A DNA stretch of 64,000 nt from a virus. Below, piece after piece: positions 4,305 to 61,222 of the stretch. The translations under genes and the position numbers were made by a program. The stretch is taken from IMG/VR virus record IMGVR_UViG_3300009164_000039, one strand, 5' to 3'. Position 1 is the stretch's first letter. Each line of letters starts with the position of its first letter. The notes under the pieces were generated by a model. It saw only the letters and a program-made list of their open reading frames with translations. It searched no databases and was not told the DNA's origin.

Positions 4305-5191
4305 AAACTGTAGACATTGCAGACCTAGATGTAATTTTTCTAACCTACGACGAACCTCGCAGAGAAGAGTCATGGGCCAAAATCAAAAACATGGTACCTT
4401 GGGCCAAGCGTGTGGATGGCATAAAAGGCAGTGATGCCGCACACAAAGCCGCAGGTGCGGCCAGCGATACAGATCGCTTTATACTAATTGACGGCGACAA
4501 TATTCCTGACCCAGAGTTCTTTAACAAACAAATCACACTGGATCCACATCATGAAAGATGTGTGTTGCGTTGGAGAGCAAGAAACGCCATCAACGGACTC
4601 ATGTACGGCAATGGTGGACTCAGCTCGTGGACCAAAAGTTTTGTAGAAAGCATGCGCACACACGAAGCCACTGATGGTCGTAATGAAACACTGGTGGAGT
4701 TTTGCTTTGAACCTGACTACTGGGCCATGCATGACTGCTACTCAACCACGTATCCTAATGCCAGTCCATTTCAGGCCTGGCGAGCAGGCTTCCGTGAAGG
4801 TGTTAAAATGTGTCTGGATCGCGGAGCAAGACCCAACTTGGACGAGTTTGAAAAACGTGCCCACAATCGTAATCTTGATCATTTGACCATTTGGCAAAGT
4901 GTGGGTGCTGATGCAGAGAATGGCTTCTGGGCCATATACGGTGCTAGACGTGGCACACAAATGACCATGCTTACAGACTGGGATTACACCCAGGTACAAG
5001 ACTTTGATGAACTGGCAAAACTTTGGACTGTGTACCAAAATGACGGCCCTGACGAATGCACTGAAGTAGGCAACATGCTACGCAAACGCCTGGGACTTAA
5101 CATTGTGGATCTAGACCCCGAACCCAGTGCATTTTTCAAACATCACTACAAGTCAAATTTTGTCAATAGAGGAATAATGAGTCGTGAGTAA
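4292..5191 (+). CDS. Glycosyltransferase-like protein (GT-A-like)
   Basis: DVIFLTYDEP start, FILIDGDN DxD motif, AWRAGFREGVKM segment. Confidence 0.65.
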   Translation: MDNMKTVDIADLDVIFLTYDEPRREESWAKIKNMVPWAKRVDGIKGSDAAHKAAGAASDTDRFILIDGDNIPDPEFFNKQITLDPHHERCVLRWRARNAINGLMYGNGGLSSWTKSFVESMRTHEATDGRNETLVEFCFEPDYWAMHDCYSTTYPNASPFQAWRAGFREGVKMCLDRGARPNLDEFEKRAHNRNLDHLTIWQSVGADAENGFWAIYGARRGTQMTMLTDWDYTQVQDFDELAKLWTVYQNDGPDECTEVGNMLRKRLGLNIVDLDPEPSAFFKHHYKSNFVNRGIMSRE

Positions 5192-6566
5192 AAGTGATTT
5201 CATGACAGCCGCAGAACAAATGCGCCACACACTAGGCGAAGGTCTTTGCTTGGCCAAATGGAAACAGGTTAGCTTGCACTTGCCCACAGGATTGAACAAT
5301 TCATGCTATCATCCTCCACTACACAAGATTCCTGTGGAACTGCTAGCAGGCAATCCTGGCGCACTGCACAATACTCCACATAAAAAAGCTCAGCGCAAGA
5401 TCATGTTGAAACATGAACGTCCAGACGAGTGTAGTTACTGCTGGTCAGCAGAAGACAATGGACAACTCAGTGACAGGCACTACAGGTCAGGCGAGGAGTG
5501 GGCCGCAGAGGATCTTGACAAGATATTGGCCTCAACCGGAGACGAAGATGCATTACCTAGCTATGTGGAAGTTAATTTTAATCATGCTTGTAATCTTAAA
5601 TGTAGCTATTGCAGTCCGCAATTTAGTTCAAGCTGGGCCGCTGAAGTTGCACAACATGGCGGATTCCCTACGTCCAGCCCTCACAATAGTCCTGAGTATT
5701 TTACTGGTAGTCGTCGCCCTATTCCTGCCCGAGAACACAACCCCTACGTTGATACCTTCTGGGAATGGTGGCCAGAGCTGTACCCCAAGCTAAGACATTT
5801 TAGAATGACAGGTGGTGAGCCACTGATGGATCACAATACCTATCGTGTGTTTGAATACGTGCTGACCTTGCCGCATCCATTGTTGCATTTGGATGTGACC
5901 AGCAACTTCAGTGTGGAGCCTGTGTTGTTTGAAAAGTATCTTGGCTATGTCAAACAGTTATGCAACACACAGATTGAACACTTCATGCAGTATGTGAGCC
6001 TGGACACCTGGGGCAGTCAAGCAGAGTACATACGCAATGGCATGGACTTTGTGAGAGTGTGTGACTATGTGGAACGCTATTTAGAGGAAGTACCCAATCG
6101 CAACAGCCTTACGTTTATCATGACCATGAACAATCTCAGTGTCACGGGCATGCATGACATGCTGGATTGGATACTGGAACTACGTGCCAAGTACAGTAAA
6201 ACATATCAGCGTGTGTGGTTTGACACACCGTTGCTGAGACAACCACGTTGGCAAAGCCTGCAGATACTGCCGCCTGCGTATGCCAACAGAATGAAAATAA
6301 ACCTAGAGTTCATGCGAGCACACCTAATCACAGATGATAGTTTTGTGGGATTCAAAGATTATGAAATACAGCGCATGGAACGAGACATTGCCTGGATGAC
6401 TGAGCCACAAGACGCACAAGAAGTCAATCATGCACGTGCTGACTTCTATAGATTCTTCAACGAACACGACCGTAGACGCGGTACTAACTTTTTACAAACA
6501 TTTCCAGAGATGAGCCATTTCTGGTGGGAATGCAAACATCATGCCGAAACTGAACAACGAAACTGA
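5184..6566 (+). CDS. Radical SAM protein 1 (N-terminal Cys/His auxiliary domain)
   Basis: CNLKCSYC motif, TGGEPL; N-terminal CLAKW..SCYHP..CSYCW. Confidence 0.9.
   Translation: MSKSDFMTAAEQMRHTLGEGLCLAKWKQVSLHLPTGLNNSCYHPPLHKIPVELLAGNPGALHNTPHKKAQRKIMLKHERPDECSYCWSAEDNGQLSDRHYRSGEEWAAEDLDKILASTGDEDALPSYVEVNFNHACNLKCSYCSPQFSSSWAAEVAQHGGFPTSSPHNSPEYFTGSRRPIPAREHNPYVDTFWEWWPELYPKLRHFRMTGGEPLMDHNTYRVFEYVLTLPHPLLHLDVTSNFSVEPVLFEKYLGYVKQLCNTQIEHFMQYVSLDTWGSQAEYIRNGMDFVRVCDYVERYLEEVPNRNSLTFIMTMNNLSVTGMHDMLDWILELRAKYSKTYQRVWFDTPLLRQPRWQSLQILPPAYANRMKINLEFMRAHLITDDSFVGFKDYEIQRMERDIAWMTEPQDAQEVNHARADFYRFFNEHDRRRGTNFLQTFPEMSHFWWECKHHAETEQRN
5548..5793 (+). CDS. Putative overprinted 2-TM membrane protein (81 aa) in +1 frame of radical SAM 1
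   Basis: GGAG 6 nt upstream of ATG 5548; two hydrophobic helices; host frame locally shifts to T-ending codons. Confidence 0.45.
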   Translation: MHYLAMWKLILIMLVILNVAIAVRNLVQAGPLKLHNMADSLRPALTIVLSILLVVVALFLPENTTPTLIPSGNGGQSCTPS

Positions 6567-7896
6567 TATAGAATTCAAACGCAGAGTGATTGACATCAAG
6601 TCAACCAGCTTCTGCGGAGCCAAATGGTACAATGCTACCATATGGTTGGGTAGTGGACAAACAACCAGCTGCCACCACCCACCTGCACACTCAATTGACT
6701 TGCAAGAAATAAAAACCAATCCTGCCGCACTGCACAATACCACTCGTAAAAAAGCTGATCGTGAAATGATGCAAAAAGGTGAACGCCCAGCAGGCTGTGA
6801 ATACTGCTGGAAGATAGAAGACATGGGCCCTGAGTCTGTCAGTGACCGTGTGTACAAAACTGTAATACATTCCGAGGAGGACCTAAATGTTGCATTTGCC
6901 AGACCCAGCTACACAGACTTCAACCTTCGCACGTTGGAAATTGCGTTTGACAGAACTTGTCAGTTCGCTTGTTCTTATTGCAACCCTGCTTTTAGTAGCA
7001 CATGGGTTAAGGACATTGGTAATAACGGGCCATACACAGGATTGGTATCTGACGGCAGGAACCATTTTACTCACGCTCATGATAGTAGTCAACTGTATAA
7101 ATTCAATGAAGTTAATCCGTACGTGGAAGCATTCTTCCAGTGGTGGGAAACAGATCTCCACCAGACACTAACAGAGCTTCGCATCACCGGAGGCGAGCCA
7201 CTCATGTCAGGCTACACCTGGCAGCTGATTGACTGGTTCAAAGCCAATCAAGGCAAGAGCCATACCAAACTGGCCATCAACAGCAATCTTGGCATGGAGC
7301 CGGTCAAGATGCTGGATTTTATTCGGCGTGTGGAAGGTATTCCGCATCTGGAAATCTACACCAGCAACGAAGCACTGGGCGCACAAGCAGAGTATATTCG
7401 TGACGGATTGAATTACCGGCAATGGCTCAGCAACATGGAGATGTTGATCAATTCAGGCGCAGTAAATCAAATGCATGTGATGTGTACAGTCAATGCATTG
7501 TGTCTGGAAAGCCTGCCTGAATTTTTAGATGAATTGGTTGTGTTGAAGAAAAAGTACAGCAGAGACTTTCCTAACTTCACGTTGAACATCTTGCGTTTTC
7601 CTAGTTTTCAAAGTCCACTGGTATTACCATATGAGATTAGACAAAAGCATGCAGACCGCCTGGCACAGTTTTTGGTACGCCACAAAGGACAAAACTACTT
7701 GCATGAGCATGAGATAAACCACGTGGAACGTCTAGTAAAGTATTTGCTTGAAGTAGATACACCTCATGCAGAAGCATTTGAAATGCCTAAATTGTTGAAT
7801 GACTTCCGACAGTTTTATATCCAATATGATCAGCGCCGCGGAAAAAACTTTGTAAATACATTCCCGGCTCTCAAGGATTGGTATGAAACACTCTAA
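6541..7896 (+). CDS. Radical SAM protein 2, paralog of protein 1
   Basis: CQFACSYC, TGGEPL; N-terminal CGAKW..SCHHP..CEYCW. Confidence 0.9.
   Translation: MPKLNNETDIEFKRRVIDIKSTSFCGAKWYNATIWLGSGQTTSCHHPPAHSIDLQEIKTNPAALHNTTRKKADREMMQKGERPAGCEYCWKIEDMGPESVSDRVYKTVIHSEEDLNVAFARPSYTDFNLRTLEIAFDRTCQFACSYCNPAFSSTWVKDIGNNGPYTGLVSDGRNHFTHAHDSSQLYKFNEVNPYVEAFFQWWETDLHQTLTELRITGGEPLMSGYTWQLIDWFKANQGKSHTKLAINSNLGMEPVKMLDFIRRVEGIPHLEIYTSNEALGAQAEYIRDGLNYRQWLSNMEMLINSGAVNQMHVMCTVNALCLESLPEFLDELVVLKKKYSRDFPNFTLNILRFPSFQSPLVLPYEIRQKHADRLAQFLVRHKGQNYLHEHEINHVERLVKYLLEVDTPHAEAFEMPKLLNDFRQFYIQYDQRRGKNFVNTFPALKDWYETL
6887..7171 (+). CDS. Putative overprinted 2-TM membrane protein (94 aa) in +1 frame of radical SAM 2
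   Basis: GAGGAGG at 6874..6880, 6 nt before ATG; two hydrophobic segments. Confidence 0.5.
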   Translation: MLHLPDPATQTSTFARWKLRLTELVSSLVLIATLLLVAHGLRTLVITGHTQDWYLTAGTILLTLMIVVNCINSMKLIRTWKHSSSGGKQISTRH

Positions 7897-9097
7897 GACA
7901 TTTTGCATATTGCCATGGATACATCTTCATGCATTCCCTGATGGCCGTGCGTATCCTTGTTGTATGGGAGAATATCACTCACCCATTGGCGATCTTAAAA
8001 CACACACAATGGAGCAGGTGTGGAATCAAGCGCCACTAGCTACCATGCGAAAGAACATGCTACAGAATGTCAAGTCCAAAGAGTGTGTCAAATGCTATGA
8101 GCTAGAAGAAAATGGTTTTGTCGGCATGCGACAAAGCATGAACCGTGCGTTTGCACATCACATGCCATTGGCAGATCAAACACTTCCTGATGGCACACTG
8201 CCTGACTTTCGACTACGCTACTATGACATTAGATTTAGTAATCTGTGTAATTTCCGTTGCCGCAGTTGTGGCAGTGTGTTTTCCAGCAACTGGTATGATG
8301 ACGAAGTTGCCGCACATGGTCAAGTACAGCATCCCAAGATCATGTTTGCTGGCCAACACAAACAAGACATGTGGGAGCAAATGCAACCGCATATACCACA
8401 TCTAGAACAAGTGTACTTTGCAGGCGGCGAACCCTTGATCATGGAAGAACATTATCGTGTGCTAAAAGAACTAGTACAGAGAGAAATGTTTGATGTCAGA
8501 CTGGTATACAACACCAACTTTAGTGAATTAGATTTCAAAGATGAAAGTGTACTGGAGTTATGGAAACTGTTTAAGAATGTCAGCGTTGGTGCTAGTCTAG
8601 ACGCCAGCGGCACACGAGCAGAGTACATTCGCAAAGGCACAGTATGGCACAAGATTGTACACAATAGAGAACGCATGTTGTCTGTGTGCCCTCAAGTTGA
8701 CTTCTATATAAGTAGTACCGTGGGCATACTAAATGTATGGCACTTGCCAGACTTTCATCGTGAATGGGTTGACTTGGGATTGATACGCCCGCAAGATTTC
8801 AACATCAACATGTTACAATCACCTGAATGGCAACGTGCAAATCATCTGTCACCGGAGTTGAAACAACAAGTGAAAGAACGCATACACAATCACCTTGAGT
8901 GGCTTGGTCCATTGGATCACATGAATCGTGCAACCAATGGTTATCGGAGTATTATAAAGTTTATTGATCAACCTGCTGATGCAGATCAACTAAAAGAGTT
9001 TTTTAGAGAAACTGATCAATTTGATCAAATACGCAATGAGAGTTTTGATGCTACCTTTCCTGAACTGACTGGATTGAGAGACCATGCTACCAAATAA
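7883..9097 (+). CDS. Radical SAM protein 3 with N-terminal SPASM/Twitch-like domain
   Basis: CNFRCRSC, AGGEPL; CILPW..YPCC..CVKC. Confidence 0.9.
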   Translation: MKHSKTFCILPWIHLHAFPDGRAYPCCMGEYHSPIGDLKTHTMEQVWNQAPLATMRKNMLQNVKSKECVKCYELEENGFVGMRQSMNRAFAHHMPLADQTLPDGTLPDFRLRYYDIRFSNLCNFRCRSCGSVFSSNWYDDEVAAHGQVQHPKIMFAGQHKQDMWEQMQPHIPHLEQVYFAGGEPLIMEEHYRVLKELVQREMFDVRLVYNTNFSELDFKDESVLELWKLFKNVSVGASLDASGTRAEYIRKGTVWHKIVHNRERMLSVCPQVDFYISSTVGILNVWHLPDFHREWVDLGLIRPQDFNINMLQSPEWQRANHLSPELKQQVKERIHNHLEWLGPLDHMNRATNGYRSIIKFIDQPADADQLKEFFRETDQFDQIRNESFDATFPELTGLRDHATK

Positions 9098-10298
9098 CAA
9101 TATATGTGTGCTACCGTGGATGAGCATAGAAGTAACCCCAATGGGTAACAGTCGCCCGTGTTGTTTGGCCATTGATGAAATACCAGACAACACTGGTAAA
9201 TCCTACGACCTTACCGCAGTGCCTATTCGTGAAGTATATCACAGCAAATACATGCAGGATCTAAGGCAACAGTTTCGTGCAGGAGAAAAACCCAGCACAT
9301 GCACACGATGCTGGACAGAAGAATCTGCAGGACGTACCAGCAAACGTATGAACATGTTGGCCAAATTCAACAATGATATCCAATCAATTGAATGGGACAC
9401 AGACACCCCTGAACAATTATGGTTCTTGGATCTTAAACTAGGCAACATCTGTAATCTCAAATGTCGTATCTGTGGATCCTGGAGCAGTAGTAAATGGGCA
9501 CAAGAAGAACTAGACTACTACCCAACAGCCACTAGAGAAGAACGCAAAAAACATTCAGCGTATGTATGGCTACGTCAGGGTCAGTGGCCACGTGAAAGCA
9601 TTGACTTTTGGAACAACATTGATCAAGTGCTGCCTGGTGTGCGCTACTATGAATTTACCGGTGGCGAACCATTCTTGATTCAAGAACATTTTGATTTGTT
9701 ACAACGCACAGTAGATCAAGGCTATGCATATCTTGTGGATGTACACTACAACACCAATGGCACACAGTATCCAGAAGCCGCAGTGGAGATGTGGAAAAAG
9801 TTCAAGCATGTGAACATTGCATTCAGCATTGACGATCTTGGCGCACGATTTGAATATCAGCGTTATGGCGCCAACTGGGCAGAAGTGGAACAAAATCTAG
9901 ACCGTTACTTAGAGTTAAGCAAAACACACACCAACATCACGCTACAAATGTGTATAACTGCAAATATACAAAACGTATTGTACTTGCCTGAAGTCATGGA
10001 CCATGTGTGGGCAAAAGGTTTTCGTGACGTATACATCAACATGTTACATGATCCAATTCAACTCAACATCAAGCAAATGACTCCAGTGGCGATTGAACTG
10101 GTATGTAACAGACTAAATCAAGTTCCGACCAGCAACAGATTCTATCGTGATTTCCAACAGTTAATAACGGTGATACAAACAGGTACTGGTAGTGATGGTC
10201 AAGAGTTTTGCAAAACTATCAAACAAGGTGACGTGTATCGCAAACAAAATTTTGCTGACCATCACCCAGACATAGCAAAGGCCATGGGATATGAATAA
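9084..10298 (+). CDS. Radical SAM protein 4 with N-terminal SPASM/Twitch-like domain
   Basis: CNLKCRIC, TGGEPF; CVLPW..RPCC..CTRC. Confidence 0.9.
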   Translation: MLPNNNICVLPWMSIEVTPMGNSRPCCLAIDEIPDNTGKSYDLTAVPIREVYHSKYMQDLRQQFRAGEKPSTCTRCWTEESAGRTSKRMNMLAKFNNDIQSIEWDTDTPEQLWFLDLKLGNICNLKCRICGSWSSSKWAQEELDYYPTATREERKKHSAYVWLRQGQWPRESIDFWNNIDQVLPGVRYYEFTGGEPFLIQEHFDLLQRTVDQGYAYLVDVHYNTNGTQYPEAAVEMWKKFKHVNIAFSIDDLGARFEYQRYGANWAEVEQNLDRYLELSKTHTNITLQMCITANIQNVLYLPEVMDHVWAKGFRDVYINMLHDPIQLNIKQMTPVAIELVCNRLNQVPTSNRFYRDFQQLITVIQTGTGSDGQEFCKTIKQGDVYRKQNFADHHPDIAKAMGYE

Positions 10299-11448
10299 AG
10301 TTATCCCGTTGGTTAATGTTAGTGCATTGCAAGCCCTGACGCCCGCACCTCTTGGTCGCGCAGAGGTTGACTCTGACTACATGACACGGTATATACAAAC
10401 TGGAATGGATTTTAACAAGGATCTTGGACTAGCAGGCAAATATTGTTATCACCCATTTAACACAGTCACGATAGACCATCGAGGTCGTTGCTATGTATGC
10501 ACCTGTCAGGCATGGTTACCAATCAGCGTAGGTAACATTTTAGATTTTAATTCGCTGAGTGAAATTGTTCACAGCTCACGTGCTAGAGAGATACAACGAA
10601 GTATCGTAGATGGCAGTTATCGTTACTGTGACAATAAAACTTGCGGGTTATTAATCAGCGACGCAATGGAAACTAGAATTGAGCACAAACCAGACACTGT
10701 GAATTGGATCAATTTCTGTATCGATGACAGTTGCAACTTACAGTGTCCTAGCTGTCGCACAGATTTAATATTTCATAAACAAGGTCCAGAATTTGATCTA
10801 CGTATGAAAATATCACAGCATGTGAGCAAGCTGATCAGCGAACACAATCATTTTTTACGATTTACACTAAGCAACGATGGGGATCCATTTGCTAGTCATG
10901 TGTACAGAAACCTAATGACAACTATTGCGCCACAACTGGTCAATCAGCTGGAGATTGAAATAGTAACTAACGGCATATTAATGAAGTCACATTGGCACGA
11001 AATTGAAAACATATACCCTAACCTCACACTAATCAAAGTCAGTTTTGATGCTGCCACCGAACAAACATACAACAAAACACGATGCGGCGGCAGTTGGAAC
11101 AAAGTAACTGAAAGCACTAGATTTGTAGCTGATTGGCTGGCTCAACGCAAAGCACAGCATCTCAATGCATATACTAGATTGGTAGCTAATTTTGTAGTGC
11201 AACAAACAAACTATCATGAGATGATTGACTTTGTAACACTGTGCAATTCGTTGGGTGTTGATCAGATCTTGTTTCAAAAAGTAACTAACTGGAATACGTG
11301 GATTGATGCCAACGGCACAGATCAGTACAGCGCACATGCAGTATGGCAACAGTCGCATCCTGAATATCACAAGCTGAAAGAAATACTAAAAGATCCTGTG
11401 TTTCAACAGCACAATGTTAAACTAACTAACCTAGCGGATCTACTATGA
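10291..11448 (+). CDS. Radical SAM protein 5 (divergent, DGDPF instead of GGEP)
   Basis: CNLQCPSC; CYHPF..CYVCTC..YCDNKTC; NDGDPF. Confidence 0.88.
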   Translation: MNKVIPLVNVSALQALTPAPLGRAEVDSDYMTRYIQTGMDFNKDLGLAGKYCYHPFNTVTIDHRGRCYVCTCQAWLPISVGNILDFNSLSEIVHSSRAREIQRSIVDGSYRYCDNKTCGLLISDAMETRIEHKPDTVNWINFCIDDSCNLQCPSCRTDLIFHKQGPEFDLRMKISQHVSKLISEHNHFLRFTLSNDGDPFASHVYRNLMTTIAPQLVNQLEIEIVTNGILMKSHWHEIENIYPNLTLIKVSFDAATEQTYNKTRCGGSWNKVTESTRFVADWLAQRKAQHLNAYTRLVANFVVQQTNYHEMIDFVTLCNSLGVDQILFQKVTNWNTWIDANGTDQYSAHAVWQQSHPEYHKLKEILKDPVFQQHNVKLTNLADLL

Positions 11449-12734
11449 ACAAACCTGATTCGTTATGCTTGGCTCCTTGGACACACACATATCTTAGTCC
11501 GCAGACTGAGCGCCGCATGTGTTGTGCAAGTCGCGAGCCTGCACAAAACTTTCAACAGTATATTGACACCAGCGCCGGTTCTGGCAAGTATATACCTATC
11601 ACTCTGGACGAACATTGGAACGGTGACCACATGCGCTCCGTACGAAAACGCATGCTGTCCGGCGAAACATTACCCGAGTGCGAAGTATGTAATGATAAAC
11701 TGTTGAATACCTCTGTGTATAGAGATTACTTCACGCACTTGTTTGCACACAAACTTGACCAAGTACATGCCAGTACAGATGACACCGGGCACACTACAAT
11801 GCAACCGATCAGCTGGGACTATAGATTTAGTAATCTTTGTAATTTCAAATGTCGCATGTGTGGAGACATGTTGAGCAGTGCATGGGAAAGCGAGCAACGT
11901 GTACATGGCATGATAGATTGGAACAATCCAAAGAACAACTGGATGAAGCCAGTCATACGCGATGAAATACATCAGTTTCAAACCACGCAGGTTGAACATG
12001 AGTTCAGTCAGGCAGTTGAAGAACATCGTGTTGAGGAGATATATTGGGTGGGTGGCGAACCCTTGATGTACGAACAACATTGGAAGTACATGAAAAGAAT
12101 AATTGAATTAGGGGACGGACCAAATGTCTATGCAAGATATAATACAAATCTCAGCCGTGTTGATTATCGCGGTGTCAATCTTTATCGGGATATTTTATCT
12201 GGGTTACGGGATTGGCAAATCTGCGCATCGCTCGACGGAACAGGTAAAATTGGTGAGTACATTAGATCAGGTCTCGACTTCGATGCTTGGCTTGAGAACT
12301 TCGCTCAAGGAGTTGCGATTGCGACTAATCCTAGACAGATGCGAATCGACTACACCCTTACCCTGCCAGGAATGTTTGAGGTTGAACGGATTGAACGACT
12401 GTCCGCAACCTACGGAGTACAAGTTCTGGCGAAGGTAGTTTTTAGTTTCAGTCCGGACATAGTTATGTCACCTTTAGCCCTACCTCGGGACATGTTACAC
12501 TCTTGGGTAGATGAAATACTTTCTGTGGTGAAGACCGACTCGTTAAAGGATATCTTGGTTCAGCTGAAAACTAGACCTACGTTTGCGGAACAGTGGCCCG
12601 ACCAATATCAAACAGCACTGCGCCGTGGTAAAGACCGTGTGTTGAAATTAGAAAGCATACGAGACAATCCTATCACAATGGCAGAGATATTGAGTGAACG
12701 ATCGGATGTATTGCACTGGTGGAATAACATATGA
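11445..12734 (+). CDS. Radical SAM protein 6 with N-terminal SPASM/Twitch-like domain
   Basis: CNFKCRMC, VGGEPL; CLAPW..MCC..CEVC. Confidence 0.9.
   Translation: MNKPDSLCLAPWTHTYLSPQTERRMCCASREPAQNFQQYIDTSAGSGKYIPITLDEHWNGDHMRSVRKRMLSGETLPECEVCNDKLLNTSVYRDYFTHLFAHKLDQVHASTDDTGHTTMQPISWDYRFSNLCNFKCRMCGDMLSSAWESEQRVHGMIDWNNPKNNWMKPVIRDEIHQFQTTQVEHEFSQAVEEHRVEEIYWVGGEPLMYEQHWKYMKRIIELGDGPNVYARYNTNLSRVDYRGVNLYRDILSGLRDWQICASLDGTGKIGEYIRSGLDFDAWLENFAQGVAIATNPRQMRIDYTLTLPGMFEVERIERLSATYGVQVLAKVVFSFSPDIVMSPLALPRDMLHSWVDEILSVVKTDSLKDILVQLKTRPTFAEQWPDQYQTALRRGKDRVLKLESIRDNPITMAEILSERSDVLHWWNNI
12124..12438 (+). CDS. Putative overprinted single-TM protein (104 aa) in +1 frame of radical SAM 6
   Basis: AGGGG/GGA upstream; N-terminal TM (IIQISAVLIIAVSIFIGIFYLGYGIG), Leu-rich helix, Cys-rich tail. 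Confidence 0.4.
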   Translation: MSMQDIIQISAVLIIAVSIFIGIFYLGYGIGKSAHRSTEQVKLVSTLDQVSTSMLGLRTSLKELRLRLILDRCESTTPLPCQECLRLNGLNDCPQPTEYKFWRR

Positions 12735-14667: not shown

Positions 14668-15360
14668 ATGAAAAAAATACTTGTTCTAGCCTGTAGTAGC
14701 GGATTGGGCGTCGAATGCGAAGATGTAATCAATCATTGCTGGCCCAACATACTAGGAGACCTTACTAACACCGCAGTAACCAATGCCTCTGAAGCTGGCG
14801 GTAGCAATGACATGATGTATCGCAAAGCACTGTCAATGACTGCAACTGAATCGTATGACCTGGTATTGATTGCATGGACAAACATTGATCGCATGGAAGT
14901 GTATTTTAACGAAGAGATTGTGTCTAATAGATTACCTGACGTACTAATCAGTGAAAAATTTCCTCGTGTGCAAGGACCTGGGCCAGTCAGTGTGTCTCAT
15001 CATTGGAGTGACTTGCCTTGGATTGAAAAATACTATGGCATGCACTATAATGAACGTTACTTACTAGAGCGATGGTTGCACCAAGCAATCACACTTCAAG
15101 AATATTTCAAAGCCAAAAAACAGCCATTTGCTTACATATCAAACTTTGGAAACACTCAGTATCTAAAAAATCATACAGACATTCCTATGTTAAAGATGCT
15201 GGATGTAAAATCTTGGATTGGTAACTGGCCTGGGTCAACTTTACGCGACTGGGGTGCACCAATTGGCGTACACAAATATGGTCATTTTACGTTAGACGCA
15301 CATAAATTTATTGCAGAAAAAATACATGAGCATATTAGGAATCGCGGCTGGCTTTCATGA
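14668..15360 (+). CDS. SGNH-like protein (degenerate block I)
   Basis: ASEAGGSNDMM, VLIAWTNIDR, GHFTLDAH resemble 12731..13492. Confidence 0.5.
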   Translation: MKKILVLACSSGLGVECEDVINHCWPNILGDLTNTAVTNASEAGGSNDMMYRKALSMTATESYDLVLIAWTNIDRMEVYFNEEIVSNRLPDVLISEKFPRVQGPGPVSVSHHWSDLPWIEKYYGMHYNERYLLERWLHQAITLQEYFKAKKQPFAYISNFGNTQYLKNHTDIPMLKMLDVKSWIGNWPGSTLRDWGAPIGVHKYGHFTLDAHKFIAEKIHEHIRNRGWLS

Positions 15361-16807
15361 TGCCGCACTAGCGGTAATTGACAAGCATGGGGACATTGTA
15401 TTTGCTGGACACAGTGAGCGTTACAGCAAAATCAAACACGACAAAAATTTATCGCCAGGCTTGATTGCCGAAGTATGCAAATTTGATATACATGAAATAG
15501 CATATTATGAACGTCCTTGGGCACAACAGTTGCGTAGATTGTACACCGGCGAAGGAGTAGAGTGGAACAAGCTCACAGTCCGGCAGATATTAAAAAAACA
15601 AATTAACGAGTTCAGTGCATTCTCTGGACCAGTAGTAGCATATCCGCATCATCTGAGTCATGCGGCAGCAGGATTTCAAACAAGCCCATTTACCCGTGCC
15701 ACAGTGGTTGTGATAGACGCTGTAGGTGAATGGGACACAATAACCATCTGGGGCGCAGAATACGATCGCAATGGACACGCACAGTACAAGAAGTTATGGC
15801 AACAAGGTTACCCGCATAGTATAGGATTGTTCTACAGTGCAATGACCCAGCGAGTAGGGTTGAAGCCCCTGGACGAAGAATACATTTTGATGGGCATGGC
15901 AGCGTATGGTGAGCGTGGCTTTGGTGACCTATTAAAAATGGACATGATAGAATCAGAATTTGACATTCGATTCAAACACAATCTACACACTGGTATAGAT
16001 AAAAAATATCTAGCCTACATCAGTGACTTTGATATAGCTGCCGGCGCACAAGATCTTGTGGAAACACTCATACTCAATGTTATGCTACGTGCTAAGAAGT
16101 TTGGGTGGAGTAGCAATCTGGTGTACGGTGGAGGTGTTGCGCTCAACTGTGCCGCCAATAGATTTTTAGGAGAATATTTTGATAACATTTGGATTATGCC
16201 TTGTCCTGGTGATGCTGGTTCTAGTCTGGGGGCCGCCGCTGTTAGTTTCCGTGGTTGTATTAATTGGACTGATGCTTGTCTTGGGCATGATATACCTGGC
16301 GACTATCCTGTTAATGATGCCGTGGCTGCTCTTTTGCGTGGTGATATTATTGGTGTGGCGAGCGGTCGAGCCGAGTTCGGCCCGAGAGCGTTGGGAAACA
16401 GAAGTCTCCTCGCAGACCCAAGAGGAACAGAAATCAAAGACAAAGTAAATGAAATCAAACGTAGACAAAAGTTTAGACCCTTTGCACCCGTTGTATTGGA
16501 AGAGATGGCTGATCAGTATTTTACTATGCCTCGCGGGTGGGATCGCAGTCGGTACATGCAGTCAGTCGCTGACTGTAGGCATCCTGAGTTATTTCCTGCT
16601 ATTGTTCACGCTGACGGAACTAGTCGTGTTCAGACCGTACCGAAAGATGGAAGCGGAATTAGAGAGCTCCTTGAAAAATGGTTCGTGTTAACTGATTGTC
16701 CTATGTTGCTAAACACCAGCCTAAACATACGTGGCGAACCTATGGTCAATGATCGTGCTGACGCAGACCGCTTTGAAAAGTTATATGGCATAAAGGTCTA
16801 CAGTTAA
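15326..16807 (+). CDS. Carbamoyltransferase, NodU/CmcH family
   Basis: ILGIAAGFHDAA, HHLSHAA, GGVALNC, GRAEFGPRALGNRS, RPFAP, DGTSRVQTV, LLNTSLN. Confidence 0.95.
   Translation: MSILGIAAGFHDAALAVIDKHGDIVFAGHSERYSKIKHDKNLSPGLIAEVCKFDIHEIAYYERPWAQQLRRLYTGEGVEWNKLTVRQILKKQINEFSAFSGPVVAYPHHLSHAAAGFQTSPFTRATVVVIDAVGEWDTITIWGAEYDRNGHAQYKKLWQQGYPHSIGLFYSAMTQRVGLKPLDEEYILMGMAAYGERGFGDLLKMDMIESEFDIRFKHNLHTGIDKKYLAYISDFDIAAGAQDLVETLILNVMLRAKKFGWSSNLVYGGGVALNCAANRFLGEYFDNIWIMPCPGDAGSSLGAAAVSFRGCINWTDACLGHDIPGDYPVNDAVAALLRGDIIGVASGRAEFGPRALGNRSLLADPRGTEIKDKVNEIKRRQKFRPFAPVVLEEMADQYFTMPRGWDRSRYMQSVADCRHPELFPAIVHADGTSRVQTVPKDGSGIRELLEKWFVLTDCPMLLNTSLNIRGEPMVNDRADADRFEKLYGIKVYS
16179..16448 (+). CDS. Putative overprinted multi-TM protein (89 aa) in +1 frame of carbamoyltransferase
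   Basis: AGGAG at 16168..16172, 6 nt before TTG; about 60 hydrophobic residues then a charged tail. Confidence 0.5.
   Translation: MITFGLCLVLVMLVLVWGPPLLVSVVVLIGLMLVLGMIYLATILLMMPWLLFCVVILLVWRAVEPSSARERWETEVSSQTQEEQKSKTK
16449..16691 (+). CDS. Putative overprinted 2-TM protein (80 aa), translationally coupled to 16179..16448
   Basis: TAA-ATG abutment; hydrophobic WLISILLCLAGG..ILSYFLLLFTL. Confidence 0.45.
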   Translation: MKSNVDKSLDPLHPLYWKRWLISILLCLAGGIAVGTCSQSLTVGILSYFLLLFTLTELVVFRPYRKMEAELESSLKNGSC

Positions 16808-18813
16808 TGTATGATGTATTTTATACCGGCACAGCACCTGGCGTGTTTGCACACGAACGCAGTGCCAACAACATTGAACACGCACAGCAACTGAGTCGTA
16901 CACGTTACTTCTGGTGGGTAACTGCACATTGTGACTACACCGACTTTGATTTTTACTTCACACCTGTACCTTGGCAAGGAGACTTCACGCATGTATGGCC
17001 CACACAATGGAAAGAGTTCTTTGGTGCATACCTTGTGCCCACCAACAGTAAACAACTAAACTATCACCACCACAGTGAAGTGTTACCTCCGCGGCAGCAT
17101 CCAGAGCACTATACAAAACTAATCAACTGCGAGTTTGATACTGAGTGGGTTCCGCATCCTTGGGACCCACCTTACATCTATGTGTTTGGTAACCAGTGGT
17201 ACCCAGCAGAGAAAATGCCCACTGTTGAATATCATGCGCCGGGTGCAACTGAGCGCAAGTTCATGCCGTGGCCACGTGCGCAACTGGTTCCTGACACTAC
17301 ATTATGGACAGTGCCAGAAGGCATTGATCCCGGCGACGTGGATTTTTCATGGGTGCCCGATCCGGGCTCACCTCCATATATCTATCAGTTTGCCACACAG
17401 CATCAGAAAACAGGTGGCCCACAATATCGTATGCCCGGTGCAACTGAAGTAAAGTATGTGGAACAAGTAAAGGTACGCACCAGTCGTGTGGCTACAGCCG
17501 TTTATGAAATTGATCACAGTGACGGCAACACCGGGTATGTTCCAAACATTACTCGACGTATTCGATTCTTTGACAACTACAAGGACACACTGATACGTCT
17601 GGCAACCAGTATAGGCGATGAACATGACTTTGTGTGGATATGTAGCAGTGCGTGTGACTACACAAACTTTGACTTCACATGGCACCCAGAACAATGGCAA
17701 GCTACTATGTTGCATGTGTTCCCAAGCAACGACCAAAAGTTTGGAGACACATTCTTCATGCATGTGCCCACCTTTAGAGCACGTGCTGAACAGTACGAAT
17801 TGTTAGATTGGTATGACCTAAACTTCTGCACCGACCAGTTAGTGCCACGCAGACCATTTCCATGTGTTGAATATTCTGGATCCAGTGTTGTACCAGTTAT
17901 TCGCGAGCATGAGTTTTTGGCCCCGTATACGTTATTTCAGCATACCTTGTACAGTTCAACACAAGTACATGCTAGTCCGAGCCTGTGGAGTAAAAAACAC
18001 CGTGAACTGATTACATTTAGCGCAGGAAACAGCGCCGCACTAGTGCCTAAAGATGTAAAACAACACCTTGAGACACAGGTTTATGACTACCCTTGGATCA
18101 AGAAAAGTAACGATCGCTTGCCCGAACTGCCACAAGACATTGTGTTTATCAGTTACGATGAATTGAATGCAGATCAAAACTATCACAATCTTGTGAGCCG
18201 TTTTTCAAATGCCAAACGAGTACACGGTGTTGAAGGAATGGTTGCGGCACTAGAAGCAGCCGCACGTGCTAGCACAACTGATTGGTTCTATGCAGTGTTT
18301 GCCAAGACACAGGTACATGAGTCATTTGTGTTTGACTTTGCACCAGATCGTTTCCAACAACCCAAGCATTACATATTCTATGCTATCAATGCAGTGAATG
18401 ATCTAGTGTATGGAGAAATGGGCATCATCTTATACAACCGTCAAATGGTACTGGACGGTCCTGCTGAACTGGGCATTGACTATACCATGAGCTTTCCAAA
18501 TGAAACCATACCGCAAATCAGTGCTTACGGTAACTTCAACACAGATCCATATCAGACCTGGCGTACTGCATTCCGTGAAACTGCAAAACTATGTTTGTTC
18601 CAGTATCAGACACCCAGCGTGGAAACAGAACACAGACTTGGTACATGGTTGTCACACGCACGTGGTGCGCATGCTGAGTGGGCATTGCGTGGTGCGCAGG
18701 ACGGAAAACAATTCTTTGAAGAAGTAGGTGCAGACGAAGCGCAACTAAAAGCAATGTTTAGTTGGAAATGGTTACGTGAACGCTACTGTAGTCTTTACGA
18801 AAAAACTTCTTGA
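16807..18813 (+). CDS. Multi-domain glycosyltransferase-like protein; C-terminal domain paralogous to 4292..5191
   Basis: DIVFISYDE..KRVHGVEG..TWRTAFRETAKL; internal repeats WVPxPxxPPYIY..PGATE. Confidence 0.65.
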   Translation: MYDVFYTGTAPGVFAHERSANNIEHAQQLSRTRYFWWVTAHCDYTDFDFYFTPVPWQGDFTHVWPTQWKEFFGAYLVPTNSKQLNYHHHSEVLPPRQHPEHYTKLINCEFDTEWVPHPWDPPYIYVFGNQWYPAEKMPTVEYHAPGATERKFMPWPRAQLVPDTTLWTVPEGIDPGDVDFSWVPDPGSPPYIYQFATQHQKTGGPQYRMPGATEVKYVEQVKVRTSRVATAVYEIDHSDGNTGYVPNITRRIRFFDNYKDTLIRLATSIGDEHDFVWICSSACDYTNFDFTWHPEQWQATMLHVFPSNDQKFGDTFFMHVPTFRARAEQYELLDWYDLNFCTDQLVPRRPFPCVEYSGSSVVPVIREHEFLAPYTLFQHTLYSSTQVHASPSLWSKKHRELITFSAGNSAALVPKDVKQHLETQVYDYPWIKKSNDRLPELPQDIVFISYDELNADQNYHNLVSRFSNAKRVHGVEGMVAALEAAARASTTDWFYAVFAKTQVHESFVFDFAPDRFQQPKHYIFYAINAVNDLVYGEMGIILYNRQMVLDGPAELGIDYTMSFPNETIPQISAYGNFNTDPYQTWRTAFRETAKLCLFQYQTPSVETEHRLGTWLSHARGAHAEWALRGAQDGKQFFEEVGADEAQLKAMFSWKWLRERYCSLYEKTS

Positions 18814-22447: not shown

Positions 22448-23358
22448 ACTGCCATTGGAGCTGAAATGGGCTCGTGATACGTGTAGTCACGCAGTTCAAT
22501 GTCTGCCATGGTGAACTTGGTGATGTCTTTCACAGCAGGGTTTAACCATAAGGTCGGAAGCGGGTATGGTTCGCGTTCTAGTTGTGTCTTTACCTGCTCC
22601 ACGTGATTGAGATATATGTGAGCGTCTCCGAGAACGTGAACGAACTCGCCTACTTCAAAACCGCACACTTGAGCAATCATATGTGTGAGTAGGGAATAGG
22701 ACGCTATGTTGAAAGGCACGCCTAAGAACATGTCGCAGGAACGCTGATACATTTGACAACTCAACCGACCTTTGGAATCGACGTAAAACTGTGACAAGAC
22801 GTGGCACGGTGGCAAGGCCATAGATTCTAATTCTCCAGGGTTCCAAGCAGATAATATATGTCGTCGTCCGTACGGGTCTCTATATAGACCGTCTATTAAC
22901 AGTTTCAATTGATCAGTTTCAGTTTCGTGTACACCACCGGCCACACTGAAGTAGCTGCCGTAGCTGTCTTTGAAACTGCCTGCACGTGCATGTCGTGCAG
23001 TTTTCCAGTGGCGCCATTGTACCCCATACACACGGCCTAGGTCGCCTGGAAACTGTGCTTTGGGTTTCCAGTAGTCTGCTGTGGCATTGGCAGACCAGAT
23101 GGTTGTCTTGCTAGACTCGGCGCTACCATGTAATATCTCTCGCAGCCGCTTCTCGTCCCCTGATCCTTCAATGAACCACAGCAGTTCTGAAACCACGCTT
23201 TTCCAAGCCAGCTTCTTTGTTGTCACAGCAGGAAAGCCGTGTGCTAGATTGTATCGTTGTTGCATGCCAAATAGGCCAATGGTACCTGTACCGGTGCGAT
23301 CTTGTCGCTCTTCGCCAGTGTCAAGTATCTGTTGTAGGGCGTTGTGGTAAGTCTTCAT
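22444..23358 (-). CDS. thyA: Thymidylate synthase
   Basis: DRTGTGT, ELLWF, YGVQWR, MALPPCH, YQRSCD, GVPFNIASY, GDAHIY. Confidence 0.97.
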   Translation of the reverse strand: MKTYHNALQQILDTGEERQDRTGTGTIGLFGMQQRYNLAHGFPAVTTKKLAWKSVVSELLWFIEGSGDEKRLREILHGSAESSKTTIWSANATADYWKPKAQFPGDLGRVYGVQWRHWKTARHARAGSFKDSYGSYFSVAGGVHETETDQLKLLIDGLYRDPYGRRHILSAWNPGELESMALPPCHVLSQFYVDSKGRLSCQMYQRSCDMFLGVPFNIASYSLLTHMIAQVCGFEVGEFVHVLGDAHIYLNHVEQVKTQLEREPYPLPTLWLNPAVKDITKFTMADIELRDYTYHEPISAPMAV

Positions 23359-38231: not shown

Positions 38232-38615
38232 TCAAGAGATTTCACTGCGACCATTACCTAGATCTTTTCGATTCACGCCACGTGGGTTCATGGCTTCGTA
38301 TTGTTCCCACGTTTCCAAAGCTACGTTTTTGCACACATCCTGGAACCAACGGTCGATAATCTGTTCATCATCTCGGCCAGCATAACCAGACTTGATCAGT
38401 TGCGCAATAAAGAACTCGTTCCAGTCCAGTTCAAATGCACCTTGACCAATGTTGTCTGCATCCAGTTCAATGCCCACAATGTTCACATAAGGTTTGCCTG
38501 CTTTGGTAGCTATCTCTTTTGGTGACAGTGTTTTCTTCACAGGTGCTTTTTTAGCCGCTGTTTTTTTTGCCGGAGCTGGTTCGGCTTCAACTGGTTTTGG
38601 TTTTTTAGTTGCCAT
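38232..38615 (-). CDS. Hypothetical protein
   Basis: TAATG overlap with queE; Lys/Pro-rich N-terminus; GAFELDWN. Confidence 0.7.
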   Translation of the reverse strand: MATKKPKPVEAEPAPAKKTAAKKAPVKKTLSPKEIATKAGKPYVNIVGIELDADNIGQGAFELDWNEFFIAQLIKSGYAGRDDEQIIDRWFQDVCKNVALETWEQYEAMNPRGVNRKDLGNGRSEIS

Positions 38616-41047: not shown

Positions 41048-41593
41048 TTAACCTTCATAGATTGCAGAATTGCCTGCGTGTTCAAAGCATTCCACACTCA
41101 ACAATTTAACGCGAGCGTGTTCATCACCCAGCAAGTTTTTGTACTTGTTGGTAGGGTCATCATTGAGCCAATCGTTTGTCCAAGCATACACAAATTCTGC
41201 AAACTTTTCACAACCCACAGCAGGCAGTGTGATTAGATTGATAACACCTTTGTTGCCTACAGGATGTGCTTGAACTTCTTCTGGCTTGCCGTTTAGTTCA
41301 GCATCTGCACTCCAACCTGACATGGCTTGAAACTGCTCAAGCATGGGATCATCTTGTGCCACAACCATGGTGTGATCAAATGTTTTTTCCAGGAATGCTT
41401 TGAGCTCGGCCAGGCCGCCAAAGTCTTGTACCCAGTTGCGCTCGTCCAGTTCTTCTGCTTCAAACACAAACTTGAAACCCAAACTGTATCCATGTAGCAA
41501 ACTGCAATGACTGTGCGTGGCACGCCATTGTCTAAAAGTGCAACTCAGTCCACGATCGTTACCATAAGTTTTGGTACTAAAGCGTCTTGCCAT
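41048..41593 (-). CDS. queD: 6-carboxytetrahydropterin synthase / PTPS family, paralog A
   Basis: RQWRATHSHCSLLHGY, WVQDFGGL, FDHT, CEKFA. Confidence 0.85.
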   Translation of the reverse strand: MARRFSTKTYGNDRGLSCTFRQWRATHSHCSLLHGYSLGFKFVFEAEELDERNWVQDFGGLAELKAFLEKTFDHTMVVAQDDPMLEQFQAMSGWSADAELNGKPEEVQAHPVGNKGVINLITLPAVGCEKFAEFVYAWTNDWLNDDPTNKYKNLLGDEHARVKLLSVECFEHAGNSAIYEG

Positions 41594-61216: not shown

Positions 61217-61222
61217 TATTTA
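61217..61222 (-). promoter_or_regulatory. Putative late promoter TAAATA, 4 nt before dps ATG
   Basis: Same spacing as at 2006..2011. Confidence 0.55.

Follow-up and report, generated by a model that had tools for sequence, protein, structure and literature searches.

Two probable overprinted membrane-protein genes in the +1 frame of a carbamoyltransferase gene from large freshwater phages

The carbamoyltransferase locus and its nested reading frames

The material analysed here consists of metagenomic contigs from uncultured freshwater phages with large dsDNA genomes (related contigs reach up to 374 kb), and we use "the window" for the whole 64,000-nucleotide stretch examined from IMG/VR record IMGVR_UViG_3300009164_000039. 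The gene of interest encodes a NodU/CmcH-type carbamoyltransferase (Table 1), in which the Pfam domains Carbam_trans_N (E 2e-37, 130 bits, residues 100-309) and Carbam_trans_C (E 4e-47, 160 bits, residues 340-487) are both found above cutoff and in collinear order, together with a partial NCBIfam NodU match. We recovered 80 homologous viral loci, and the enzyme frame is open and conserved in all homologs. The sequencing runs in which the locus was detected are DNA metagenomes from freshwater, with no RNA run among them, and contigs from four runs yielded short fragments of diverged relatives, of no use for a test at the population level. Its ORF neighbours in the window, as assigned with Pfam, include a DUF6071 protein and a DegT aminotransferase, as well as a 668-aa protein for which no sequence match was obtained in Pfam, PHROG, NCBIfam or PDB.

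Table 1 Coordinates of the carbamoyltransferase gene, its nested features and other relevant genes of the window
Feature	Position	Strand	Basis or remark
Nested +1 ORF, 81 aa, two hydrophobic segments	5548..5793	+	Inside radical SAM gene 5184-6566
Nested +1 ORF, 94 aa	6887..7171	+	Inside gene 6541-7896
Nested +1 ORF, 104 aa, N-terminal TM	12124..12438	+	Inside radical SAM gene 11445-12734
Host gene, NodU/CmcH-type carbamoyltransferase, 498 aa	15311..16807	+	Pfam, NCBIfam, homologs
TAG stop, +1 frame, closing the frame just 5' of ORF-A	16167..16169	+	Host L285 xTA + G286
Shine-Dalgarno (SD) AGGAG for ORF-A, 6 nt 5' of TTG	16168..16172	+	Sequence
ORF-A, nested +1 candidate gene, TTG start, 89 aa, stop TAA 16446-16448	16179..16448	+	Stop depletion, hydropathy
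TAAATG junction, ORF-A stop abutting ORF-B start	16446..16451	+	Sequence
ORF-B, nested +1 candidate gene, ATG start, 80 aa	16449..16691	+	Stop depletion, HMM match
668-aa gene	16807..18813	+	Homologs directly downstream of free-standing ORF-B in carbamoyltransferase-free phages

Two further ORFs, ORF-A and ORF-B, lie in the +1 frame of this gene, the overlap with ORF-B being covered by the enzyme's C-terminal domain. All elements of the original prediction (an AGGAG-N6-TTG start, two +1 ORFs of 89 and 80 aa, and a TAA-ATG contact between them) are present as described, and the TAG that closes the frame upstream of ORF-A recurs in 65/81 homologs, the third base of host L285 being A in 80%. The ORF-A product comprises approximately 60 uncharged residues, forming 2-3 TM segments, followed by a charged tail; its AF2 model, a single long helix with a pTM of 0.36, is uninformative on topology. 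The ORF-B product begins with a hydrophilic stretch, followed by a TM hairpin of two helices (approximately residues 19-37 and 41-61) and a charged C-tail, and its AF2 model contains helices at residues 12-36 and 39-76. The SD motif belonging to ORF-B itself is weak in this window (AAAGAC).

The +1 frame is as close to uninterrupted as had been claimed, with one stop in 16170-16688 versus 26 stops in the ~725 nt upstream. The local shift of the host frame towards T-ending codons was also confirmed: these make up 0.50-0.70 of codons in 16121-16390, whereas 34 further window genes give 0.20-0.38, and the observed T3 of 0.57 lies above both the expectation of 0.34 +/- 0.047 and the maximum of 0.51 in 5000 simulations based on the amino acid sequence and window codon usage. 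Taken as a single genome, the ORF lengths are mildly unusual (P = 0.06 for a longest open stretch of at least 92 codons), 2 stops are present versus 7.2 expected (P = 0.006), and a scan of 52 window genes for long alternative-frame ORFs, which has low power in a single genome, flagged neither the carbamoyltransferase gene nor the gene starting at 11445 at p <= 0.03. It is the comparison among homologs that is decisive in placing the ORF pair beyond chance.

Selection on the +1 frame and its translation signals

Among 68 distinct carbamoyltransferase homologs with 62-72% amino acid identity, stops in the +1 frame are depleted approximately 6-fold exactly over both ORFs, with 47 observed versus 320 expected for ORF-A (host codons 286-359) and 35 versus 176 for ORF-B. 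In bins of 15 codons the ratio of observed to expected stops is 0.14-0.17 over ORF-A and 0.18-0.22 over ORF-B, versus ~1.0 across the remaining 285 codons upstream, between the ORFs (codons 360-389) and downstream. Two control genes from this operon also give ~1.0, and none of their bins falls below 0.5 except at a true 50-nt overlap of adjacent genes. ORF-A is free of stops in 50/68 homologs. Phylogenetic inertia cannot explain this retention, because synonymous sites elsewhere in the gene have almost reached saturation (pairwise 4-fold-site identity of 0.36, versus 0.41 in ORF-A and 0.47 in ORF-B). Synonymous codon choice is also under greater constraint in ORF-B (KL 0.44, p = 4e-5) and in ORF-A (KL 0.31, p = 0.03) than upstream (KL 0.24). 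The check originally proposed, an alignment of homologs for retention of the +1 ORFs and for synonymous constraint, thus has a clearly positive outcome. Outgroup carbamoyltransferases (37-47% identity) lack both ORFs and their starts, and contain several +1 stops.

A potential alternative explanation is that the +1 frame is non-coding, its open and hydrophobic character being a by-product of a host preference for T-ending codons in a conserved enzyme core (for translational accuracy or speed), or reflecting an RNA or DNA element. Thymine at host position 3 does remove +1 stops and yield hydrophobic xTx codons in the +1 frame, the amino acid sequence alone gives long +1 open stretches (mean 65 codons), and T3 is somewhat raised in this region in outgroups also. 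However, the bias is specific to sites and not to residues: P424 and P428 are encoded by CCT in 91-95% of homologs, whereas P357, P369 and P389, which are just as invariant, show no bias. Moreover, in precisely those parts of ORF-B that are hydrophilic, the preference turns to A-ending codons, and R384, R388 and R450 are AGA in ~90% of homologs versus 15% in the whole window. Synonymous choice lifts +1 hydropathy in the TM segments (by +1 to +2 KD units in ORF-A) and depresses it in the N- and C-tails of ORF-B. The bias also ends at the ORF boundaries and fades where the nested ORF is broken, T3 excess falling from +0.21 in homologs with an intact ORF-A to +0.15 with 1-2 stops and +0.05 with three or more, and from +0.17 to +0.13 and +0.07 in the equivalent classes for ORF-B (intact versus broken, Mann-Whitney, p = 2e-4 and 1.5e-3, respectively). 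Given in addition the conservation of starts, SD motifs and bounding stops, and the homology of ORF-B to free-standing genes (see below), we regard a non-coding origin of these patterns as extremely unlikely. At the level of sequence comparison, the homologs instead demonstrate selection on the +1 ORFs, on their starts and on their hydropathy pattern, and they support the nested pair as the cause of the shift of the host frame to T-ending codons.

The starts, the SD motifs and the stop preceding the ORF-B ATG are retained through synonymous codon choice. A start with an SD is present for ORF-A in 45/68 homologs (13.9 +/- 3.2 expected), and host G286, at the SD site, is GGA in 75% of homologs versus 26% family-wide. 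For ORF-B, the ATG is found in 64/68 homologs (39.0 expected), the ATG together with an SD in 51/68 (10.2 expected), and a stop immediately before it in 66/68 (38.9 expected), while the host codons at the junction of the two ORFs are GTA for V378 in 84% of homologs and AAT for N379 in 96%. ORF-A is ~18 codons shorter (71 aa) in most homologs, where ORF-B possesses its own AAGGA-type SD, and the TAA-ATG abutment occurs in this window and in a minority of homologs. Since ORF-B lacks a good SD here and its ATG abuts the TAA of ORF-A, it would probably be translated by termination-reinitiation in this window, and from its own SD in most relatives. Each ORF is disrupted in approximately one quarter of homologs, with at least 8 independent lineage losses each, and is therefore dispensable or conditionally useful; the two are also lost independently of each other. 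Thus, of the coupled two-gene operon that had been envisaged, an SD-led pair of membrane ORFs that abut in this window stands, whereas obligatory coupling does not, given that abutment is confined to a minority and losses are independent.

Entry into the +1 frame could in principle also occur by a programmed frameshift at ~16175-16181, fusing the N-domain of the enzyme to a membrane anchor, and an SD-like AGGAG does lie just 5' of a T-rich TAT TTT G, in a loosely prfB-like arrangement. We find this scarcely credible, however, as the A site holds no slow or stop codon, tRNA-Phe would re-pair poorly on TTG, and an SD 6 nt from the TTG fits initiation, versus the 3-nt spacing of prfB. Frameshifting would moreover leave unexplained the conserved ATG, own SD and preceding stop of ORF-B, as well as the free-standing ORF-B genes that carry SD motifs of their own.

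We consider it very likely that ORF-A and ORF-B are overprinted membrane-protein genes laid over an older gene, and we judge it probable that the carbamoyltransferase gene codes in two frames over its 3' third, with independent initiation in the +1 frame. Under this dual-coding model, the enzyme would be read in frame 0, while separate +1 starts at the SD-TTG at 16179 and the ATG at 16449 would give rise to two small inner-membrane proteins, the ORF-A product with its uncharged stretch and charged tail, and ORF-B as a predicted N-in/C-in two-helix hairpin with a basic-then-acidic tail; translation, topology and coupling are inferred here. Both genes would have arisen by overprinting inside one clade of phage carbamoyltransferases, pushing the host frame to T-ending codons where hydrophobic residues are needed and to A-ending codons where charged residues are needed.

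Further nested ORFs and free-standing relatives of ORF-B

The suggestion that nested membrane ORFs form a systematic layer, of which the pair is a part, is borne out by three others, each of which shows localized stop depletion among 71-76 homologs. Over host codons 225-269, the ORF at 12124-12438 has 3 +1 stops versus ~199 expected, with flanks at ~1.0 (76 homologs); observed/expected ratios are 0.08-0.11 for the ORF at 5548-5793 over host codons 120-149 and 165-179 (74 homologs), and 0.00-0.30 for the ORF at 6887-7171 over host codons 120-194 (71 homologs). With ORF-A and ORF-B, this would bring the nested +1 genes for membrane proteins to at least five within one late operon for glycan or sugar tailoring.

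No known protein family in Pfam, PHROG or NCBIfam matches ORF-A or ORF-B, and we found no description of these nested genes in the literature. For ORF-A, no relatives were detected outside the nested position, a profile search yielding 4 nested-type matches only, and for ORF-B a search of the ESM Atlas gave only low-score, unnamed clusters. ORF-B does, however, have relatives that are free-standing (P0014, P0016, P0018, P0019 and P0021-P0023), and an HMM built from these 7 proteins only matches ORF-B of the window with 52 bits (E 1.9e-14), the match including an FW...G-x3-Y motif common to the family. The same HMM recovered 64 nested ORF-Bs among 4852 ORFs (E 9e-22 to 1e-3) with zero off-target matches, and pairwise comparisons of ORF-B agree (BLASTP against P0014, 7e-14; hhalign against P0018, probability 97.6%). 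These profile and pairwise matches establish the homology of ORF-B to free-standing genes. The alignment of the free-standing members contains no stretch conserved enough for a degenerate pattern.

The free-standing ORF-B genes carry their own SD, and three of the contigs concerned (L327, L329 and L330) are without a carbamoyltransferase. In L327 and L329 the gene lies between a radical SAM gene and a homolog of the 668-aa gene of the window, and in L330 directly upstream of such a homolog (tblastn of these neighbours against the window, E 1e-59, 4e-15 and 6e-94 for L327, L329 and L330, respectively), a gene order that suggests a tie between ORF-B and the 668-aa protein. The idea that the carbamoyltransferase is invariably followed at once by the 668-aa gene was rejected: the latter is downstream in 33/80 loci, usually 1-3 kb off, and in the other loci was not found within the fetched flank. 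Distant relatives of ORF-B lie between methyltransferases on a T4-like contig, or beside a peroxiredoxin-like gene.

A direction from nested to free-standing is favoured, because the C-domain of the enzyme is ancient and aligns collinearly with outgroups devoid of the ORF, and because a gene that already existed could not have entered a conserved domain's alternative frame by insertion. When five free-standing ORF-B genes were examined for remnants of the enzyme frame, no significant signal emerged (p 0.10-0.69, by local alignment and by HMM score versus synonymous shuffles), and one tblastn match on L327, in the right frame and position, has an E of 0.02 in a 13-kb database. As a rather speculative scenario, ORF-B may have been born de novo in the carbamoyltransferase gene and have outlived the enzyme in lineages where the latter was deleted, persisting in free-standing form immediately 5' of the 668-aa gene with its place in the operon unchanged, and may then have diversified; with the four other nested +1 genes, it might constitute a hidden membrane layer that anchors or organizes the soluble glycan-tailoring pathway in large freshwater phages.

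Possible roles, known systems and significance

The most likely role of ORF-A and ORF-B, which we put forward with reserve, is that they could serve as accessory membrane components of the glycan-tailoring pathway, for example by tethering or organizing soluble enzymes at the inner membrane, with ORF-B linked to the 668-aa protein. An unlikely alternative is that the ORFs are real but act on the host membrane apart from the chemistry of the operon (in superinfection exclusion, of which the small 2-TM protein T4 Imm is an example, host takeover or anti-defence), riding on abundant late mRNA. Small hairpin membrane proteins with charged cytoplasmic tails would suit such functions, their dispensability and frequent loss resemble those of accessory fitness genes, and the distant relatives of ORF-B occur in other genomic contexts. 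Against this, every one of the five nested ORFs so far identified belongs to a single tailoring operon, the closest free-standing homologs of ORF-B keep their operon position beside the 668-aa homolog, and no exclusion-protein family is matched.

Class II holins (such as S21 of phage 21) and T4 Imm are small inner-membrane phage proteins with two TM segments. ORF-B resembles them in size, in its two-TM hairpin and in its charged cytoplasmic ends, a likeness of topology only, and the pair was originally labelled holin/antiholin-like, which would make it a lysis-timing pair that triggers or delays lysis from the inner membrane. The class-II-holin-like layout of ORF-B (two TMs, likely N-in/C-in, and a charged C-tail) and the adjacency and coupling of the two genes in this window are consistent with that label, although at least two TM segments with a charged hydrophilic C-tail are common to many small membrane proteins that are not holins. 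Two relatives also gave Pfam holin-family matches (E 0.006 and 0.04), yet these are well below cutoff, the scores among relatives being 17 bits versus a cutoff of 28.4 for Phage_holin_3_3 and 14 bits versus 25.4 for Phage_holin_3_7, and no holin profile in Pfam, PHROGs or NCBIfam reached threshold. The flanking genes encode sugar-tailoring enzymes, and a scan of 37 window ORFs, a set that includes some of the small ones, turned up no endolysin, spanin or other lysis gene. Furthermore, mutually independent losses on the scale observed are a poor fit for an essential lysis timer and its partner, and the free-standing homologs of ORF-B reside in tailoring operons and not in lysis cassettes. A lysis function is consequently very unlikely, ORF-A and ORF-B are probably not lysis proteins, and the holin/antiholin label is not supported.

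Other nested genes provide closer parallels in architecture. In phiX174, a 5.4-kb ssDNA phage under strong genome compression, the lysis gene E is nested in the +1 frame of gene D, and its product is a single-TM inhibitor of MraY that is essential for lysis. As in E/D (reviewed in PMC8227390), the arrangement described here combines same-strand +1 overprinting, a T-rich host wobble position that yields a hydrophobic membrane protein, and an internal RBS. Unlike in phiX174, it is found in large dsDNA phages, where a single gene contains two such ORFs and the operon as a whole five, and these ORFs are often lost and have no link to lysis. Summer et al. reportedly described, in 2007, how lambda Rz1 (the o-spanin) lies within Rz in the +1 frame, the arrangement being embedded, overlapped or separated depending on the phage; here too, a wholly +1-embedded gene occurs in a dsDNA phage, and its family is both nested and free-standing. 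Rz1 is a lipoprotein and binds the protein encoded by Rz. In contrast, ORF-A and ORF-B are without a plausible lipobox, the host gene encodes a cytoplasmic enzyme, and free-standing ORF-B occurs where the enzyme gene is absent. The idea of a lipobox or o-spanin in ORF-A was rejected, as the invariant G5 and C7 in its GLC (residues 5-7) are dictated by the invariant host W293-I-M-P. In Escherichia coli, the enzyme gene gnd harbours the small membrane protein GndA in a different frame (PMC11230408). GndA is similarly a small TM protein encoded on the same strand within the CDS of a metabolic enzyme and overlooked by annotation. It is, however, bacterial, heat-shock induced, narrowly conserved and under 50 aa in length, whereas the nested ORFs described here are of 70-89 aa and are conserved in a diverse phage clade, with clear marks of purifying selection.

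Overlap of viral genes is usually ascribed to pressure on very small genomes. The presence of at least five nested +1 genes in one operon, among contigs of up to 374 kb, supports overprinting as a source of new genes without a shortage of space. Standard gene callers miss nested genes, and the small membrane proteins of phages may therefore be systematically under-counted, while the nested genes would be lost without notice if such enzymes were subjected to codon optimization or synonymous recoding. A family that is both nested and free-standing provides a rare natural experiment on the constraint that an overprinted gene places on its host gene, and on the lifting of that constraint.

Setting of the nested reading frames

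The window is phage DNA, encoding a family-B DNA polymerase, thymidylate synthase, an exonuclease and QueE, and freshwater metagenomes contain sequence near-identical to it. The carbamoyltransferase gene belongs to a long same-strand operon with radical SAM/SPASM enzymes, a DUF6071 protein and unknown proteins, while a DegT aminotransferase gene lies beyond the operon on the opposite strand. Six radical SAM genes stand in tandem at 5184-12734, and in several of these the SPASM-type auxiliary cluster domain is N-terminal, not C-terminal (Pfam placement: SPASM, residues 8-114; Radical_SAM, residues 117-330). For the 460-aa radical SAM gene at 5184-6566, tblastn matches to homologs in L188, L194, L198, L217 and L224-L227 (viral loci) span 1750-1860 nt instead of ~1380 nt, which suggests an insertion of ~370-480 nt (intein, intron or extra domain).

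The original prediction placed a Shine-Dalgarno (SD)-led pair of nested ORFs (ORF-A and ORF-B) within the carbamoyltransferase gene, with a local shift to T-ending host codons, and both features are confirmed in the sequence. A single +1-frame stop occurs in the ~520 nt covering the nested ORFs, compared with 26 in the preceding 725 nt, and the fraction of T-ending host-frame codons locally reaches 0.5-0.7, compared with 0.20-0.38 in 34 other genes and an expectation of 0.34 +/- 0.05 from the amino-acid sequence. Judged from this single genome, finding both ORFs by chance would be no more than moderately unlikely (P about 0.006-0.06). Further unusually long alternative-frame open stretches lie in minus-strand genes (58948-59241, 53188-53406, 57698-57868, 41296-41544, 55670-56023 and 22658-22879); none is markedly hydrophobic, and their P values of 0.003-0.023 against synonymous shuffles come from this genome alone, a weak test.

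Coordinates of the carbamoyltransferase gene, nested ORFs and radical SAM genes outside the tandem array
Feature	Position	Strand	Remarks
NodU/CmcH-type carbamoyltransferase	15311-16807	+	both Pfam domains
SD motif AGGAG of ORF-A	16168-16172	+	6 nt before TTG 16179
ORF-A	16179-16448	+	+1 frame, TTG start, 89 codons, TAA 16446-16448
ORF-B	16449-16691	+	+1 frame, ATG 16449 directly after ORF-A TAA, 80 codons
Nested +1 ORF	12124-12438	+	3 observed vs about 199 expected stops over 45 codons
Nested +1 ORF	5548-5793	+	observed/expected stops 0.08-0.11
Nested +1 ORF	6887-7171	+	observed/expected stops 0.00-0.30
Additional radical SAM gene	61220-62341
QueE-like radical SAM gene	38615-39487

Stop depletion, initiation signals and codon choice

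An IMG/VR scan yielded 80 loci (carbamoyltransferase protein identity 62-72%, contigs up to 374 kb) with 68 distinct sequences, which were codon-aligned; expected +1 stops were derived from random synonymous codons under each locus's own codon usage. Retention of the +1 frame among phage homologs, proposed originally as a test, proved positive, with 47 stops observed vs 320 expected at host codons 286-359, and 35 vs 176 at codons 379-448. In 15-codon bins, the observed/expected ratio is about 1.0 (0.6-1.2) over the first 285 codons, 0.14-0.17 at codons 300-359, 1.1-1.25 at 360-389, 0.18-0.22 at 390-434, and at least 1 beyond, while stops are enriched over the same regions in the +2 frame and one antisense frame. 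Under the same analysis, two control genes (the neighbouring 364-aa gene and DUF6071) have no bin below 0.5 except the last DUF6071 bin, a real overlap with the carbamoyltransferase gene that acts as a built-in positive control (1 observed vs 12.8 expected). Because the scan picks up this overlap, of 50 nt (15311-15360) between gene 14668-15360 and the carbamoyltransferase gene start, the TTG annotated at 15311 may be the genuine start and not an ATG further into the gene. Upstream of the nested ORFs, pairwise identity at 4-fold sites is 0.36; synonymous sites are thus near saturation, and ORF retention cannot be explained by shared ancestry. The "systematic layer" of nested ORFs originally envisaged is likewise supported, since three other nested +1 ORFs, tested on 71-76 distinct homologs each, show the same localized depletion (see table), with stop ratios near 1.0 in their flanks.

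ORF-A has an aligned TTG in 66 of 68 homologs; 65/81 carry a +1-frame stop three codons before it, and 45/68 an SD motif between -16 and -5. Synonymous shuffling predicts the combination of start and SD in only 13.9 +/- 3.2 of 68. These signals stem from unusual host codon choices, G286 being GGA in 75% (vs 26% family-wide) and L285 xTA in 80%. ORF-B begins with ATG in 64 of 68 (host N379 is AAT in 96%), with a stop immediately 5' in 66 (38.9 expected), and ATG plus SD occur in 51 (10.2 +/- 2.9 expected). Its SD is mostly AAGGA, formed by K375 AAG and D376, and is degraded in the window (AAAGAC). Most homologs end ORF-A by stops at codons 360, 366 and 374, and the two ORFs are lost independently, so the coupling originally predicted is only partly borne out; in the window, ORF-A is without these stops and so extends to the TAA abutting the ORF-B ATG, and there the pairing would permit termination-reinitiation of ORF-B.

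Codon bias is site-specific, not residue-specific: CCT encodes P424 in 95% and P428 in 91%, yet P357, P369 and P389, which are just as invariant, show no codon preference; at R384, R388 and R450 the codon is AGA in about 90%, although AGA makes up 15% of window Arg codons. A uniform T3 preference could produce an open frame, yet relative to synonymous shuffles the actual codons raise +1 hydropathy by 1-2 Kyte-Doolittle units at codons 294-306, 318-352, 399-412 and 420-437 and lower it by 0.6-1.3 units in the ORF-B N-terminus and C-tail, and such a preference cannot account for both. Host-level explanations are removed by the dependence of T3 excess on ORF integrity (for ORF-A, +0.21 when intact, +0.15 with 1-2 stops, +0.05 with at least 3, and about 0 in L071, L072 and L079; ORF-B behaves likewise). 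Codon-choice divergence (KL) is 0.44 in region B, 0.31 in region A and 0.24 upstream. Codon choice thus shows selection on the nested protein itself, and not just on keeping the frame open.

Ancestry and free-standing relatives of ORF-B

In the outgroup carbamoyltransferases, those of Ralstonia phage RsoM2USA (45% identity), marine virus AG-345-D19 (47%) and phage C48C1 (37%), the ORF starts are missing and both regions are interrupted by several +1 stops. On the outgroup-rooted tree, intact ORFs occur across the whole ingroup, basal branches included, with at least 8 scattered disruptions of each ORF; L032, L072 and L079 retain ORF-B alone, and L027 and L078 ORF-A alone. Intact basal members and scattered, independent losses indicate that both ORFs are ancestral to the ingroup clade, usually kept, dispensable and no obligate pair.

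Searching 1.84 billion proteins with a profile made from 47 nested ORF-Bs gave 23 matches, some being nested ORFs called by gene callers and others free-standing genes of 61-79 aa sharing an FW...G-x3-Y pattern. In L327, a 67-aa gene is placed between a radical SAM gene (4-nt overlap) and a 517-aa gene (8-nt overlap), and L329 shows the same gene order; in L330 (a 186-kb viral contig) a 67-aa gene with its own GAGG SD follows a divergent intergenic region and extends into the start of a 583-aa gene. Each large gene on the downstream side is homologous to the 668-aa gene (16807-18813) that follows the carbamoyltransferase gene in the window (E 1e-59, 4e-15 and 6e-94 for L327, L329 and L330), and the adjacent radical SAM genes match the window's radical SAM paralogs. 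No carbamoyltransferase is present at these three loci, nor on the whole L330 contig (estimated 49% complete). An HMM built from seven free-standing proteins only, run on 4852 stop-to-stop ORFs from the window and 80 loci, matched 64 ORFs, all 64 nested ORF-B (E 9e-22 to 1e-3; window ORF-B, 1.9e-14), and none in alternative frames of the outgroup carbamoyltransferases. The HMM result thus supports, independently of the stop and codon analyses, a protein product of ORF-B, and links its family to operons of this type.

Because the carbamoyltransferase C-domain is of ancient origin and stays collinear throughout the ORF-B overlap, the only simple history would be birth of ORF-B inside the enzyme gene, followed by its outliving deletion of that gene. 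Vestiges of the enzyme frame sought in free-standing ORF-B genes were not significant, and the nested-to-free direction is thus one that we infer.

The 668-aa protein belongs to no known family and contains an internal repeat (motif W-x-P-x-P...PYIY-x-FG-x-QW-like), a 103-aa L329 fragment matching its gene four times (16873-17067, 17119-17361, 17275-17496 and 17635-17760); its homologs are conserved neighbours of free-standing ORF-B genes. P0020, a bacterial-looking 203-aa protein on a 2563-nt ENA/NCBI contig, combines a response-regulator receiver domain with a C-terminal two-TM segment matching the ORF-B profile (E 5e-6) and is flanked by a second receiver-domain gene and an HD-domain gene; the match could reflect real distant kinship or similar composition.

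Topology, precedent and possible roles

Membrane-protein genes nested in the +1 frame are already known, among them phiX174 E within D and lambda Rz1 within Rz. The topic has been reviewed (PMC8227390), and E. coli GndA within gnd is a further example (PMC11230408). In our literature search, neither carbamoyltransferase nor radical SAM genes were described as hosts of such genes, nor did a multi-gene layer of them in large phages come up.

ORF-B is predicted to form a helical hairpin (AF2 helices 12-36 and 39-76, pLDDT 68), probably N-in/C-in given the basic residues beside both membrane ends. In the window, ORF-A contains some 60 uncharged residues, and its homologs show a first TM, a variable, often charged linker and a longer hydrophobic stretch. 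Pfam, PHROG and NCBIfam hold no fitting family for either, holins included. The holin/antiholin pair originally proposed is therefore not supported: in addition to the lack of a holin-family match, it is argued against by the frequent independent loss of both ORFs, the lack of lysis neighbours among the window ORFs scanned, the clustering of five nested ORFs within a single tailoring operon, and the adjacency of free-standing ORF-B to homologs of the 668-aa gene. A serious rival is a membrane effector that acts independently of the pathway, for instance an exclusion protein. Taken together, the losses, the neighbourhood without lysis genes, the five-ORF operon and the 668-aa adjacency weakly suggest that ORF-A and ORF-B may instead have an accessory membrane role in the tailoring pathway.
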